DNA from: an uncultured Clostridia bacterium
Lineage (GTDB): Bacteria; Bacillota; Clostridia; Christensenellales; Aristaeellaceae
Length of the DNA: 64,000 nt
Reading direction: 5' to 3'
Assembly: GCA_946538975.1 (NCBI GenBank)
Contig: CAMNHF010000001.1
Location: 10,431-74,430 of the forward strand
Shown one piece after another: positions 4,302 through 47,655 of this stretch (its first letter is position 1; every line of letters begins with the position of its first letter). The position numbers and the translations under genes were made by a program. Under the pieces are notes generated by a model. The model was not told the origin of the DNA, searched no databases, and saw nothing but the letters and a program-made list of their open reading frames with translations.

Positions 4302-4475
4302 ATGCTCAGGCGCAATTGCTGCCAGAACTACCACGTCCGCGTGGGCGACACCCTGGTAAAGATCACCGACAACTGCCCCGTGAACAAGAAGGTCTTCCAG
4401 GTGGGCGACGCGGCCTTCATCTCCTTCGCCCCCGACTGCGTGCACCTGCTGCAGGCCGAGACCGCCGAGGCATGA
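4302..4475 (+). pseudogene. 3' remnant of an ABC-transporter ATPase (TOBE-like C-terminal domain)
   Basis: My translation gives 57 aa: MLRRNCCQNYHVRVGDTLVKITDNCPVNKKVFQVGDAAFISFAPDCVHLLQAETAEA. This resembles only the C-terminal regulatory barrel of MalK/PotA-type ATPases. No Walker motifs or nearby RBS. In-frame stop at 4293. Confidence 0.4.
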
Positions 4476-4715: not shown

Positions 4716-4782
4716 TTTCCTGGATGCGGGCTTTTCACGGCCCCTATGAAAGAGACAAAACGAGGCTGCAGCACGCAGCCCC

Positions 4783-5883
4783 TCACAACCTCTCTCCGTT
4801 CTCGTCGAACAGGATGCCGCGCATGCACAGGCGGGGCTCGTCGCGGTCGTAGTCCCAGCTGTGGTGGGCGTCGCCGTCGCAGAAGCGCTTCACCGGGCAG
4901 GCGCAGCAGGTGGGATTGCGCTCCGCCAGGGACTGCCGGAAGATGCCGAAGCGCTCCCGCCAGACCTGCGTGAAGTCATCCCGGTAGATGCTGCCCTGGA
5001 TGGTCTTTGCATTGCGCTCGATGTCCAGGCAGGCGCAGATGTCCCCCTCGGCGGTGACGCTGGCCACGAGCCGCCCCGCCGCGCAGAGGTAGAACCAGTC
5101 GCGCACATCCCGCTCGAATTCCGGCCCCAGATAGTGGCAGCAGCCGTAGGTCACCGGCTGGCCCTTCTGCCGTTCCTCCCGGATGAAGCGCAGCACCCTC
5201 CGGTGGTCCTCCGGCGTGAGCAGCAGCTCCGGATGCAGGCGGGCCCTGCCGATCGGCTCGATGGCCGTCAGCCGCCAGGCGTCGATGTCCAGCCCCTTCA
5301 TCACCTCGTAGAGGACCGGCAGCTCGCCGATGTTCCGCCGCGTCACCACGGTGGTGATCATGACGTGGCGGAAGCCGCCGCAGTCCAGCAGCGCCTGAAT
5401 GCCCGCCATGGCCCGCTGCCAGGCCCCGGGCGCGCCCCGCATCGCGTCGTGGGTCGCCTCCAGCCCGTCGATGCTCACGGAGATCGTGCGCAGGCCCGTC
5501 TCCCGCAGGCGGCGGGCGGCCGCGGCGTCGATCAGTGTGGCGTTGGAGGTCATGCCCCAGCGGTAGCCCAGCGCCGCAGCGTCCGCCATGATGTCGAAGA
5601 AATCCTTCCGCAGCATGGGCTCGCCGCCGGTGATGCACAGCAGCAGGCCGGAGATGTCGAAGTCCCGGCGCACCTTCACCAGCAGGTCATGGATGACCGG
5701 CGCCGGCAGGTCCGCCGGGGGCACATCGCCGCAGCTGGAGCCGCAGTGCTCGCAGCGCAGGTTGCACCGGGTGGTCAGCTCGAGGAAGAGGTTCTGCAGC
5801 CGCGGCTCCCGGAAGAGCTGCTCCCGGTAGTCCGCCCGGGCCTCCAGATATTCGGCTTTCAACGCATCCCGATCCGCCATCAT
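4783..5883 (-). CDS. radical SAM/SPASM-domain peptide-modifying enzyme (putative RiPP maturase)
   Basis: CNLRCEHC (CxxxCxxC) about 40 aa from the chosen start, then GGEPML. C-terminal Cys-rich region: C-x12-GDICAC, then CCACPVKRFC. Start at MMADRD (aa 50 of ORF 4783..6030) with AAGGAG upstream. Confidence 0.85.
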   Translation of the reverse strand: MMADRDALKAEYLEARADYREQLFREPRLQNLFLELTTRCNLRCEHCGSSCGDVPPADLPAPVIHDLLVKVRRDFDISGLLLCITGGEPMLRKDFFDIMADAAALGYRWGMTSNATLIDAAAARRLRETGLRTISVSIDGLEATHDAMRGAPGAWQRAMAGIQALLDCGGFRHVMITTVVTRRNIGELPVLYEVMKGLDIDAWRLTAIEPIGRARLHPELLLTPEDHRRVLRFIREERQKGQPVTYGCCHYLGPEFERDVRDWFYLCAAGRLVASVTAEGDICACLDIERNAKTIQGSIYRDDFTQVWRERFGIFRQSLAERNPTCCACPVKRFCDGDAHHSWDYDRDEPRLCMRGILFDENGERL

Positions 5884-5897
5884 TCCGCATCGGCTCC

Positions 5898-6152
5898 TTA
5901 CATCTCGTTCGGGCCCGGACCGTAGACCGTTTCCATCAAGTGCTCCGCCTCCCGCTGCACTGCCTCCGCCGACGGCCGCTCCGCGGCAAGGCTCTCCCAG
6001 CGCCGGGCCAGCTTGTCCACGGCGCGGCATGTCTGCTCCAGAATCGCGTCCGCCGCGGGATTGGCGCAGCGGGCCAGATCATCCGCCATATCCTCCATCC
6101 CCCAGATCGCATCCATCAGGACGATCACAGGCATCAAGGGTCTCATGCGCAT
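5898..6152 (-). CDS. small ORF, putative RiPP precursor 1 (ends ...HLMETVYGPGPNEM)
   Basis: 84 codons (82 from the second ATG at 6146, which is better spaced from GGAAGGAGA). High GC3 like real genes. Stop lies 14 nt before the rSAM start. Shares its C-terminal motif and a leader block with ORF 6171..6416. Confidence 0.7.
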   Translation of the reverse strand: MRMRPLMPVIVLMDAIWGMEDMADDLARCANPAADAILEQTCRAVDKLARRWESLAAERPSAEAVQREAEHLMETVYGPGPNEM

Positions 6153-6170
6153 TCTCCTTCCTGCCGGCGC

Positions 6171-6416
6171 TCAGCGGTCCGGCCCGGGACCGTACACGAT
6201 CACCATCGGCGCTTCCCGTTCCCTGCGCCTGGCCATCTCCCGCAGCGGCCCGGCGTACTTGCGGAGCAGGCTGTTCAGTGTCCCGGCCGTTTCCTCCATC
6301 AGGCTGCAGACCTGCGGCTCGTCCTGACAGAAGGAGAAACCCTGTCCCAGCCGGCGGATCAGGTCCAGCCTCTCCTGCAGCTCGCGGATGCGCTGCTGCC
6401 GTTCATCGCTCTTCAT
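6171..6416 (-). CDS. small ORF, putative RiPP precursor 2 (ends ...APMVIVYGPGPDR)
   Basis: 81 codons with RBS GGAGGAGAG about 5 nt before the ATG and high GC3. Stop lies 18 nt before the next small ORF. Paralogous to ORF 5898..6152. Confidence 0.7.
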   Translation of the reverse strand: MKSDERQQRIRELQERLDLIRRLGQGFSFCQDEPQVCSLMEETAGTLNSLLRKYAGPLREMARRREREAPMVIVYGPGPDR

Positions 6417-6448: not shown

Positions 6449-6624
6449 GTTACTGCTCAGCGTCTGGGGGAAAGAAACCCTTTTCGAGGCCGAAAAGGGC
6501 TTTCCTTCCCCCAGGCCCCCATCTTTCCCCAAAGGCCTTTTCCTTTTGGGGGGAAGAGGTTTTTGCGATGCATGCGCAGCCGGACAGGCTCAGGCGCAAA
6601 TTGCCCTGCGGGCTGAGCAGTAAC
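6449..6624 (+). repeat. MITE/REP-like intergenic repeat, copy A (full length)
   Basis: Perfect 13-nt inverted termini GTTACTGCTCAGC (6449-6461) and GCTGAGCAGTAAC (6612-6624). ATTGATGC is present on both flanks (6441-6448 and 6625-6632). Internal long hairpin GGGGGAAAGAAACCCTTTTC..GAAAAGGGCTTTCCTTCCCCC. Related copies at 6708, 29441 and 47479. Confidence 0.75.
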
Positions 6625-6707: not shown

Positions 6708-6872
6708 GTTGCCGCCCAGCCCGCAGGCCAGGATCGCCTGAACGTGTCCCGGGACCGTGCAAAAACCCCCACTCCCAAAGAGAAGCCTTTTCGGAAGGAT
6801 AGGGGCCTGGGGGAAGGGAAAGCCTTTTCCGCCCGGAAAAGGGTGCCCTTCCCCCAGACACCGGGCAATAAC
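6708..6872 (-). repeat. MITE/REP-like intergenic repeat, copy B (inverted relative to A)
   Basis: The reverse complement aligns with copy A along its length (cccccagaca...ggaaaagg...tttttgcac...cctgcgggctgggcggcaac). Termini are degenerate. Confidence 0.65.
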
Positions 6873-29443: not shown

Positions 29444-29590
29444 GCAAAAACCGCCCCGGCACAGCGCATCCACAGAAAAAGCCCCCCTTTCCCCAAGGAA
29501 AGGCCTTTGGGGAAAGATGGGGGTCTGGGGGAAGGAAAGCCCTTTTCCGCCCGGAAAAGGGTTTCCTTCCCCCAGAAACTGCACATCAAT
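29441..29590 (-). repeat. MITE/REP-like intergenic repeat, copy C (truncated, same orientation as B)
   Basis: Contains the core ctgggggaaggaaagcccttttccgcccggaaaagggtttccttccccc and the ccccaaggaaaggcctttgggg hairpin. It lacks the distal ~60 bp and ends ...gcacatcaat next to the glucokinase stop. Confidence 0.65.
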
Positions 29591-38327: not shown

Positions 38328-38415
38328 CGGAGAAGCCGGGATTTGAACCCGGGCTGCCATTTCTGACACTACTCCCTTAGCAGGGGAGCCCCTTCGGCCA
38401 CTTGGGTACTTCTCC
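38328..38415 (-). tRNA. tRNA-Ser (anticodon GCU), no encoded CCA
   Basis: Hand-folded. Acceptor GGAGAAG/CTTCTCC, anticodon arm CTCCC-CTGCTAA-GGGAG, long variable arm, T-arm CCGGG-TTCAAAT-CCCGG, discriminator G. Confidence 0.85.
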
Positions 38416-38435
38416 ACGTGGACGGTGAAACAAGC

Positions 38436-38524
38436 TGGCGGAGAGAGAGGGATTCGAACCCCCGGTGCCTTACGACATCACTGGTTTTCAAGACCAGCGC
38501 CTTCAACCGCTCGGCCATCTCTCC
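38436..38524 (-). tRNA. tRNA-Ser (anticodon UGA), CCA encoded
   Basis: Hand-folded. Acceptor GGAGAGA/TCTCTCC, anticodon arm CTGGT-CTTGAAA-ACCAG, long variable arm, T-loop TTCGAAT, 3' GCCA. Confidence 0.85.
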
Positions 38525-47478: not shown

Positions 47479-47655
47479 GGTGCTGCTCAATGCCTAGGGG
47501 AAGGAAACCCTTTTCCCGGAGGAAAAGGGCTTTCCTTCCCCCAGACCCCCATCTTTCCGAAAAGGCCGTTCTTTGAGGAAGGGGGATTTTTGCACGATTG
47601 GCGTGCGCAGGAGGACACGCTCATGCGCATATTGCCCTGCGGGCTGAGTAGCAAC
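47479..47655 (+). repeat. MITE/REP-like intergenic repeat, copy D (full length, same orientation as A)
   Basis: Collinear with copy A from ...ctaggggaaggaaacccttttc... to ...attgccctgcgggctgagtagcaac. Termini are partly degenerate. Confidence 0.7.

Follow-up and report, generated by a model that had tools for sequence, protein, structure and literature searches.

The window, that is, the whole stretch of 64,000 nucleotides (64 kb) analysed here, holds a three-gene operon on the minus strand, which reads from the sequence as P2, P1, a radical SAM/SPASM gene and a terminator in this order; in the ORF list, P2 and P1 lie directly 5' of the radical SAM/SPASM gene. The features of the operon are as follows.

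6171..6416, minus strand: precursor peptide gene P2, 81 aa, ending in ...PMVIVYGPGPDR; an ORF with an SD site (GGAGG) at 6430-6426 and GC3 0.87
6180..6197, minus strand: core motif V-Y-G-P-G-P of P2, putative modification site, from sequence and orthologue comparison
6152, minus strand: in-frame ATG, an alternative start of P1 that would give 84 aa
5898..6146, minus strand: precursor peptide gene P1, 82 aa, ending in ...LMETVYGPGPNEM; an ORF with an SD site (AGGAGA) 7 nt before 6146 and GC3 0.83
5910..5927, minus strand: core motif V-Y-G-P-G-P of P1, putative modification site, from sequence and orthologue comparison
4783..5883, minus strand: radical SAM/SPASM maturase gene, 366 aa, without an RRE domain (Pfam Radical_SAM and SPASM)
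5743..5766, minus strand: codons of CNLRCEHC (CX3CX2C, residues 40-47), radical SAM [4Fe-4S] cluster binding, from the sequence; invariant in 36 homologues
4762..4782, minus strand: terminator-like hairpin with a T-run right after the stop codon of the radical SAM gene, the operon end

The region 5898-6203, to which the original prediction referred, takes in all of P1 together with the final 11 codons of P2, and the two peptides that it had placed there, both ending in a VYGPGP tail, were confirmed as minus-strand ORFs. Gene calls on contigs of the same species start P1 with MRPLMP. A check of the operon neighbourhood found no protease, transporter or RRE gene within the operon, which is also devoid of a Y-protein gene. 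Signal peptide and lipobox are absent from both P1 and P2, and no export or cleavage function accompanies these non-secreted peptides in the window.

P1 and P2 are weak paralogues, with 29% identity across 62 aa (E = 7e-4 in pairwise comparison), and VYGPGP is the sole contiguous stretch invariant between them. A six-frame scan of the 64-kb window detected YGP[PG] at three places, namely P1, P2 and the inside of a glycoside hydrolase; because the pattern is so rare and two of its three occurrences precede the radical SAM gene, the match between the two peptides is, on this count, not due to chance. Codon GC periodicity is of the coding type (the GC3 values given above versus 0.45 at codon position 2), and both genes are intact in four contigs of the same species. 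Searches of Pfam, NCBIfam, PADLOC and PHROGs assigned the peptides to no specific leader or defence family, and a word-indexed search for homologues returned same-species variants only. An exhaustive HMM search detected orthologues of both peptides in a second organism, referred to as L068 (P0123 for P2 and P0125 for P1), with the same gene order and about 45-48% peptide identity. The SD sites, the coding periodicity, the intactness in four same-species contigs and the L068 orthologues establish the two predicted peptide genes as real. That P1 and P2 are spurious ORFs, or ORFs decaying after the loss of an ancestral lipoprotein gene, is accordingly a most improbable explanation: homologues were found in two organisms only and within-species differences in P1 are more often non-synonymous (3-4) than synonymous (0-1), but L068 keeps the order, the lengths and the YGPGP tail at this level of peptide identity versus 84% for the enzyme, as well as leader stretches such as RCANPAADAIL[ED]Q.

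In the AF2 model of P2, two helices (residues 2-29 and 34-68) are followed by a disordered C-terminal tail with pLDDT below 50, within which would fall the turn that the original prediction ascribed to Gly-Pro-Gly-Pro; the motif lies 5 and 6 residues from the C-terminus in the two window peptides. The leader of each peptide contains two Cys with no conserved counterpart in the L068 orthologues, and the core contains none, as had been stated correctly before; the accompanying view that a thioether is unlikely also holds, because no Cys is conserved in the substrates. A sactipeptide or ranthipeptide thioether is thus rejected as unlikely, and the present system differs from those maturases in that the P1 and P2 cores offer no donor Cys.

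Relatives of the enzyme are numerous among gut and rumen bacteria, with about 90 related loci. An upstream same-strand ORF for a signal-peptide protein or lipoprotein with YG sites adjoins the enzyme gene in 55 of 55 genome-derived loci and in each of the 33 metagenome loci whose upstream sequence was long enough. Two loci, L015 and L098, were at first unmatched by the search pattern; the former has VYGPS and VYGSP, and the latter, read in part, has a near-identical C-terminus. Contigs L114 and L115, drawn in through an irrelevant 52-aa cluster member, were left out. The upstream YG protein is the sole neighbour conserved across loci: across 50 loci no further gene, be it for a protease, a transporter or an RRE, was found to be conserved, and a search for relatives in viral contigs found none.

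Most of the upstream proteins carry one to six [V/L]-Y-G-P-P sites, and some have dockerin domains. In 87 substrate proteins, Tyr occupied position x in 292 of 293 [VLIM]-x-GPP sites and Gly in 292 of 292 [VLIM]-Y-x-PP sites, the X of XYGP was Val at 260 sites, Leu at 39 and Met at 4, and the median distance of the last site from the C-terminus was 8 residues. More than half of the Tyr residues in 59 upstream proteins (227/417) were within YG. As judged from these counts, the pairing of the enzyme with predicted YG(P) proteins is family-wide and the Y-G-P motif is a family signature. A literature search on VYGPP/YGPGP, or on the pairing of a SPASM enzyme with a lipoprotein, found nothing relevant. 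Since relatives of the enzyme are always paired with secreted proteins bearing repeated Val-Tyr-Gly-Pro-Pro sites, the motif is very probably the target of the enzyme.

The window and L068 depart from this common arrangement. The two enzymes share 82-84% identity, against 70-75% with the closest lipoprotein-type enzymes, and deviate from the latter at just three otherwise invariant positions. By sequence comparison the two organisms form a rare derived subclade, in which two predicted helical, non-secreted peptides take the place of the secreted protein. Homology at the DNA level to the five closest relatives is confined to the radical SAM gene (blastn). Descent of P1 and P2 from lipoprotein substrates was considered and rejected, as tblastn and blastn against the same five relatives gave motif-length matches only. 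The leader-type and lipoprotein-type substrates have a motif of about six residues as their only common sequence, and because they are otherwise unrelated, this motif is what the enzyme would need. The earlier proposal that the Tyr-Gly motif is the functionally important part is therefore strongly backed, both by family-wide conservation and by this natural swap of scaffolds. The statement that VYGPGP is the only invariant stretch applies to P1 versus P2 but not to the orthologues, in which the invariant core is Y-G-P-G-P; the Val is not invariant, and one orthologue has D-Y-G.

The same comparison bears on a reading in which YGPGP/YGPP only provides docking or structure, perhaps as a polyproline-like tag, while the chemistry takes place elsewhere, such as at the leader Cys, or on a substrate outside the window. 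Each leader does have two Cys, and the search for other YG proteins of this genome spanned 64 kb. However, apart from the lack of conservation of these Cys in L068, the secreted substrates have a mean of only 0.3 Cys beyond residue 40 (the lipobox Cys aside) and otherwise consist of low-complexity, acidic, Pro/Thr-rich linkers, and a conserved modification site elsewhere is hard to place because the two substrate types have the motif alone in common. We consider such a docking role quite unlikely, and that the Tyr of the motif is the atom-level target highly probable.

The position of this Tyr is informative also about MftC, which had been offered as a precedent. An MftC-like reaction would, as in the maturation of mycofactocin, decarboxylate Tyr oxidatively and join it to Val by a C-C bond; MftC is likewise a radical SAM/SPASM enzyme acting on Val-Tyr, Val-Tyr is the most frequent dipeptide at the present site, and TIGR03962, the model for MftC, ranks with the top NCBIfam matches (122-141 bits, 122 for the window enzyme). 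These scores are nevertheless far under the cut-off of 265 bits, and MftC acts on a C-terminal Tyr, whose carboxylate is needed, together with the chaperone MftB, whereas the Tyr of P1 and P2 is followed by 5-6 residues, the sites in relatives are internal with up to six repeats, and the present operon has neither an MftB-like chaperone nor a peptidase. Because the Tyr is never C-terminal, oxidative decarboxylation cannot apply, and this precedent is effectively excluded.

As for the enzyme itself, the radical SAM cluster motif and the SPASM auxiliary-cluster domain are both present, Cys 40/44/47 and SPASM Cys 248, 267, 285, 326, 329, 335 and 353 are invariant in the 36 homologues, and the AF2 model has a pLDDT of 92. 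Matches in Pfam, NCBIfam, PADLOC and PHROGs were generic radical SAM ones only. The best NCBIfam model is TIGR04133 ('rSAM_w_lipo', a hypothetical equivalog with no recorded function), matched over the full length with 269 bits, below the cut-off of 425; the window, L068 and Ruminococcus enzymes score 269-280 bits, and since all are below the cut-off, they would form a sister clade of TIGR04133 and not a part of the curated family. The relatives are paired with lipoproteins as the model name implies, a lipoprotein or secreted partner being present in the about 90 related loci, whereas the partner in the window is a non-lipoprotein.

Other models score lower: 138 bits for AhbD, 121 for the PlpX equivalog TIGR04103 (IPR026482; cut-off 725, with PcpX itself at 731), and, for the sactipeptide/ranthipeptide maturase models, 104 for StsB (cut-off 625) and 61 for PapB (cut-off 340), while the WgkB, DynA and HxsB models give 70-120 bits for relatives; no cyclophane-synthase model was found among the top 25 NCBIfam matches. 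The shortfall against TIGR04103 rules out membership of the type I spliceases and leaves room for other splicease types, as far as model scores can tell. In pairwise comparison, the window enzyme gives 117 bits with PcpX, a validated splicease (32% identity across 269 aa), and 102 bits with PlpX, identity to the two being 29-32%; the solved SPASM enzymes BlsE, SkfB, PqqE and CteB reach at most 52 bits, although these phmmer scores are not strictly comparable with those for PcpX and PlpX. When PcpX was compared reciprocally with NCBIfam, TIGR04133 came fourth (124 bits), behind TIGR04103, TIGR03913 and the near-tied AhbD model (126 bits). Among solved structures no close relative was found by sequence or by fold, and the fold matches to SuiB, CteB and SkfB (TM 0.6-0.7) are as good as any.

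The possibility that the enzyme clusters with anaerobic sulfatase maturases (anSMEs) or another family of unrelated function was checked too, and nothing beyond the generic SPASM fold was found, so that this ground for giving up the original prediction is absent. An anSME, too, is a SPASM enzyme of comparable size that lacks an RRE (fold TM 0.69) and acts on a short local motif in a protein exported later, but the C/S-x-P/A-x-R motif is absent here, the target residue and the reaction differ, and no anSME is among the PDB sequence matches at E <= 1e-5, so that the likeness is one of generic fold only. Because scores are about equal for the AhbD, MftC and PlpX-type models, affinity of this kind singles out no splicease link, and enzyme similarity does not discriminate between the candidate chemistries.

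Spliceases belong to the radical SAM/SPASM enzymes and remove tyramine at XYG, where X is commonly Met or Leu; they can process multiple sites per substrate and accept proteins leader-independently, and in binary systems a leader helix takes the place of the Y protein (PMC11414181, PMC11626197, PMC10849128, PMC10533398, PMC9811515). The systems PlpXY and PcpXY (type I) and RhaXA, RcsXA and RasXA (binary, type II) resemble the present locus in that a radical SAM/SPASM gene stands beside X-Tyr-Gly precursors with hydrophobic X (PMC11414181, PMC11626197). YG-rich neighbours of radical SAM/SPASM genes have served as a mining criterion for spliceases (PMC10849128), and this criterion, together with the moderate PcpX/PlpX similarity, supports the choice of X-Tyr-Gly spliceases as a precedent. 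Also in common are the possibility of multi-site substrates, the relatives here carrying 1-6 sites, and the use of both peptides and proteins; like the binary systems, the window operon has neither RRE nor Y protein. A 2022 catalogue of predicted spliceases by Scott et al. reportedly exists, in which splicease types are defined by phylogeny.

There are also differences. The window enzyme is outside TIGR04103, with TIGR04133 as its nearest model; the P1 and P2 leaders are unrelated to Nif11, NHLP and Y-protein helices; the motif extends to Y-G-P-[P/G]-P; and the substrates of most relatives are Sec- or lipoprotein-exported, dockerin-bearing proteins, and the chemistry of the present system is a predicted one. 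As regards an activating helix, the model gives the P2 leader two long helices, and a profile comparison of the leader with the PlpY/PcpY activator helix gave no similarity (hhalign probability 0.2%), and a resemblance of the two noticed by eye ([AT]-L-[DE]-x-[LI]-x-[KR]-x-[YW]) was discarded for lack of this support. Also counting against a splicease, the invariant unit is Y-G-P instead of X-Y-G, with Asp taking the X position in one orthologue. RcsX left a DYG site unspliced (PMC11626197), and in PcpA, which also has an IYGP site, only the two MYG sites are described as spliced (PMC11414181; sequence in PMC9484694). The accessible literature contains no experimental data on members of this enzyme clade.

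Splicease-type excision of tyramine at X-Tyr-Gly is, by analogy with these systems, the reaction best supported, and we infer it with a probability of about one half. P1 and P2 would be paralogous precursors, each with helices in its N-terminal region and a short, unstructured core bearing one X-Tyr-Gly-Pro-Gly-Pro site, which the radical SAM/SPASM enzyme would recognise and then modify. Because the enzyme has no RRE domain and no Y-protein partner, recognition would be mainly via the local motif, possibly assisted by the helical leader. In relatives, the same recognition would operate on several [V/L]-Y-G-P-P sites per protein, with secretion afterwards. The most likely reaction would cut the equivalent of tyramine, C8H9NO, out of Tyr (-135.06 Da) and leave a ketoamide. 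Ketoamides are electrophilic warheads typical of inhibitors of serine and cysteine proteases, and a protease-inhibiting spliced product may be proposed with less confidence than the splicing itself.

The same pair of enzyme and substrate, with the same motif, may instead support another chemistry that leaves the backbone unexcised, such as a C-C or C-O crosslink centred on Tyr (a three-residue cyclophane across Tyr-Gly-Pro, for instance), epimerisation at Calpha, beta-hydroxylation or desaturation, or cleavage of the Tyr side chain. The clade would then carry out a Tyr-directed radical modification other than tyramine excision at [V/L]-Y-G-P-P, and hundreds of Firmicutes and Coriobacteriia from gut and rumen would bear it on exported proteins, lipoproteins and dockerin-bearing cellulosome components included. 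We hold this possibility to be less likely than tyramine excision. Triceptide cyclophanes have an aromatic-X-X pattern, which is formally matched by the invariant unit, Y-G-P(-P/G-P) and not X-Y-G, and in triceptides (3-CyFE), too, an aromatic residue opens a conserved three-residue unit beside a radical SAM/SPASM enzyme. The similarity of the enzyme is generic among SPASM maturases, the WgkB, DynA and HxsB models included, and the SuiB, CteB and SkfB folds match no worse than others. On the other hand, neither the middle Gly nor the Pro at +2 varies here, unlike in triceptides, and no family-specific match was found; an absolutely invariant Gly beside Tyr is a splice-site hallmark, whereas crosslink motifs vary at the middle residue. 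The pairwise scores with PcpX and PlpX exceed those with structurally solved crosslinking enzymes, with the reservation on comparability given above. We know of no report of a cyclophane or ether crosslink onto Pro at +2.

If tyramine splicing is the reaction, the enzymes would represent an uncharacterised splicease clade abundant in gut and rumen anaerobes, which would place ketoamide warheads derived from Val at multiple positions of surface lipoproteins and cellulosome-docked proteins, and a plausible role would be that of tethered protease inhibitors shielding the extracellular machinery. The window contains the simplest member, with an 81-aa single-site peptide and a 366-aa enzyme without a partner protein, and protein engineers could, if splicing is true, use this pair as a compact splice tag. 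Should the chemistry be a different one, the family would give access to a new and very widespread modification of proteins, not just of peptides, for which the two-peptide operon would be a natural minimal substrate. Whichever reaction applies, the scaffold swap points to a short motif of about six residues as the sole sequence that otherwise unrelated substrates have in common.

The genes under study form a compact minus-strand operon, in which the small precursor-peptide genes P2 and P1 are followed by the gene for a radical SAM/SPASM maturase (the window enzyme):

6416..6171, minus strand: P2, 81 aa, sequence MKSDERQQRIRELQERLDLIRRLGQGFSFCQDEPQVCSLMEETAGTLNSLLRKYAGPLREMARRREREAPMVIVYGPGPDR
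6146..5898, minus strand: P1, 82 aa (in-frame ATG at 6152, +2 residues), C-terminal end ...AEHLMETVYGPGPNEM
5883..4783, minus strand: radical SAM/SPASM gene, 366 aa, starting 14 nt after P1
4782..4762, minus strand: hairpin and T-run immediately 3' of the radical SAM stop codon

Both peptide ORFs are preceded by Shine-Dalgarno sites, and their GC periodicity is that of genuine genes (GC3 of 0.83 and 0.87 against 0.45 at position 2; genome G+C, 64%). They encode weak paralogues (29% identity, E = 7e-4) whose sole contiguous identical stretch is VYGPGP, and two of the three YGP[PG] occurrences in the six frames of the 64-kb window are those of P1 and P2. The original prediction of two peptides sharing VYGPGP near the C-terminus is confirmed by these observations; in the P2 model, two long helices are followed by a disordered tail with the motif.

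The CX3CX2C motif of the window enzyme (CNLRCEHC, residues 40-47) and its complete set of SPASM cysteines are invariant among 36 homologues. Its confident AF2 model (pLDDT 92) comprises an N-terminal helix, a partial TIM barrel and a SPASM domain, and no RRE domain was found in it. The fold is about equally near to SkfB, SuiB, CteB, anSME and PqqE (TM 0.6-0.7), and no solved structure is closely related by sequence. The top NCBIfam model is TIGR04133 ("rSAM_w_lipo"), matching at full length with 269 bits against a cut-off of 425, followed by AhbD (138), MftC (122) and PlpX-type TIGR04103 (121 bits). Residue 327, flanked by the SPASM cluster cysteines C326 and C329, is Cys in the window (TCCACPVKRFC; codon 4903-4905) and Arg in four same-species contigs, a difference that is probably neutral.

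More than 1,300 relatives of the enzyme were found at E <= 1e-20, most of them from rumen and gut bacteria (Ruminococcus and other Oscillospiraceae, Erysipelotrichaceae, Coriobacteriia). In 55/55 genome-derived loci and in 33/33 metagenome loci whose upstream sequence reaches far enough, the gene directly upstream on the same strand codes for one kind of protein. These proteins combine a Sec or lipoprotein signal peptide with a low-complexity body rich in Pro, Thr, Asp and Glu, and most have one to six [V/L]-Y-G-P-P sites (lipoprotein-type substrates). The motif at first seemed absent from loci L015 and L098; direct reading of the L015 protein showed two variant sites, VYGPS and VYGSP, and the L098 protein, read at its C-terminal end, has the same sequence there. 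The YG-site protein is the sole neighbour conserved across loci, where no conserved protease, transporter or RRE gene was found. The logo of 214 sites is N-E-P-x-x-V-Y-G-P-P-[P/E]-D-[F/Y]-[D/E].

Residue counts at the motif in 87 upstream substrate proteins
[VLIM]-x-G-P-P with Tyr at x: 292/293
[VLIM]-Y-x-P-P with Gly at x: 292/292
Tyr before GPP: 296/297
X of XYGP: Val 260, Leu 39, Met 4, other 7

A type I dockerin domain (PF00404, scoring over the Pfam gathering threshold) is present in many VYGPP-repeat substrates of Ruminococcus, which makes these putative radical SAM substrates proteins targeted to the cellulosome. Examples encoded upstream of the radical SAM gene are:

L001, 3454-3972
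L012, 2859-3968
L005, 3227-3979

Two contigs binned as "uncultured Alistipes sp." (L006, L013) also carry a Ruminococcus-like enzyme, about 55% identical to the window's, with a dockerin-type substrate; MAG mis-binning seems a better explanation than a true occurrence in Bacteroidota.

Judging from sequence comparison, the window operon is a rare derived variant. Non-secreted peptides of the P1/P2 kind (leader-type) were found in two places only: in same-species contigs, whose enzyme is 99% identical to the window's, and in L068, a contig of a second organism. There, the cassette has the same gene order, and an exhaustive HMM search gave a P2-like peptide (P0123, ending ...IRIVYGPGPDRLP) and a P1-like peptide (P0125, ending ...RRMILDYGPGPDDCD); no further homologues outside these two organisms were found among 5.8 billion proteins. 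The window and L068 enzymes (84% identical) are mutual closest relatives placed among lipoprotein-type enzymes, from which they differ at just three otherwise invariant positions, and beyond this subclade even the nearest enzymes (70-77% identity) are paired with lipoproteins that carry two or three [V/L/I]YGPP sites. Beyond the motif, nothing in common was detectable between P1/P2 and lipoprotein substrates. VYGPGP, proposed as the invariant core, holds as such between P1 and P2, whereas all six leader-type peptides share only Y-G-P-G-P as an unbroken run, preceded by Val in five and Asp in one; Met1, Pro34, Leu50 and Glu68 are invariant as isolated residues. The arrangement amounts to a natural scaffold swap, in which the substrate body was replaced and the motif and its near-C-terminal position alone were kept. 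Of all the evidence available, this speaks most strongly for the motif as the site of recognition and modification by the enzyme.

The genomic contexts of the two-peptide cassette are unrelated between the two organisms. Of the window operon's neighbours, the AEC-family transporter gene, the WYL regulator gene and the 57-aa ORF show conservation within the species only; the ORF is gene-called in all same-species contigs and absent from L068. In L068 (107-1141), genes for an XRE-type HTH regulator and an M78 (ImmA/IrrE-like) peptidase, a pair typical of mobile-element control modules, immediately precede the cassette, and a LysM gene follows it. Other features of the window are:

4302-4475, plus strand: 57-aa ORF, weak TOBE-like match, located between the WYL regulator and radical SAM genes and convergent to the operon
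6449-6536 and 6785-6872; also 29553-29575 (minus) and 47494-47516 (plus): dispersed palindromic element, about 50 nt (CTGGGGGAAAGAAACCCTTTTCG...CGAAAAGGG...CCCCCAG)
38328-38524, minus strand: two adjacent tRNA genes, the only Rfam gathering-level matches in the window

Immediately upstream of P2, the first two palindromic copies make up the 88-nt arms of an inverted repeat. In the same-species contig L063, the stretch from the transporter gene to P2 is about 350 nt shorter, which suggests that a REP- or MITE-like element was inserted.

For the chemistry at Tyr-Gly, spliceases are the closest precedent: these radical SAM/SPASM enzymes cut a tyramine equivalent (-135.06 Da) at X-Tyr-Gly to give alpha-keto-beta-amino acids, and they can do so at multiple sites and in proteins without a leader; binary spliceases work without a Y protein and are activated by a leader helix; mining of YG-rich neighbours of radical SAM/SPASM genes covered 189 genera, with 27 validated and 939 predicted pairs; and the products inhibit serine and cysteine proteases (PMC11414181, PMC11626197, PMC10533398, PMC9811515, PMC10849128, PMC11002830). 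At the sequence level, the window system fits the splicease criteria in most respects, though its enzyme is clearly not a member of the type I equivalog. PlpX and PcpX sequences were taken from supplement file 14 of PMC9484694, and the recovered PcpX text is reliable since it scores 731 bits, above the TIGR04103 cut-off. The window enzyme matches PcpX with 117 bits (32% identity over 269 aa) and PlpX with 102 bits, and solved SPASM maturases with at most 52 bits (phmmer), the methods being not strictly comparable. For PcpX itself, TIGR04133 ranks fourth (124 bits) after TIGR04103, TIGR03913 and the near-tied AhbD (126). The second of these (344 bits) is the "GDL motif peptide-associated radical SAM/SPASM maturase", a match that hints at a possible kinship of the GDL family, itself uncharacterised, with spliceases. 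The splicease affinity of the window enzyme is non-exclusive, AhbD and MftC models scoring about as well, and because of this and its position outside the type I equivalog we put splicease chemistry at a probability of about 0.5.

The suggestion of Tyr-Gly chemistry is partly supported. Splicing is its likeliest form; MftC-like decarboxylation of a C-terminal Val-Tyr is excluded in practice because the Tyr is never C-terminal. Thioethers, already thought unlikely, are excluded for want of a conserved Cys. In place of splicing, a crosslink centred on Tyr or some other radical outcome is a less probable candidate. We retain it in part since Y-G-P and not X-Y-G is the invariant unit, and since D-Y-G, found in one leader-type orthologue, is a context left unprocessed by RcsX (PMC11626197).

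The type of system, a radical SAM/SPASM enzyme with X-Tyr-Gly precursors, is already known, and the spliceases predicted by Scott et al. 2022 may include window-type systems already; the searchable open literature gave no mention of VYGPP proteins. New, as far as verifiable, are the TIGR04133-like and not PlpX-type enzyme clade, the presence of an extended Y-G-P-[P/G]-P motif in exported proteins (lipoproteins and dockerin proteins), and the derived two-peptide leader-type architecture of the window, with the motif alone kept.

In the probable course of events, the peptides would be made in the cytoplasm, and in relatives the substrate would be the pre-lipoprotein ahead of export. The RRE-less enzyme would bind the extended, Pro-flanked motif, a logic resembling that of anSME, which acts on sulfatases before export. 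The helical leader of the window subclade may strengthen binding or have an activating role, as in binary spliceases; no similarity was found between the window leaders and Y proteins. If splicing is the reaction, a 5'-deoxyadenosyl radical would initiate chemistry on Tyr, tyramine would leave, and the Val carbonyl would be joined to the former Tyr carbonyl, giving a Val-type ketoamide followed by Gly-Pro-Gly-Pro. In relatives, several ketoamide warheads would sit on acidic disordered linkers and so be anchored to the membrane or cellulosome, where they would plausibly act as protease inhibitors.
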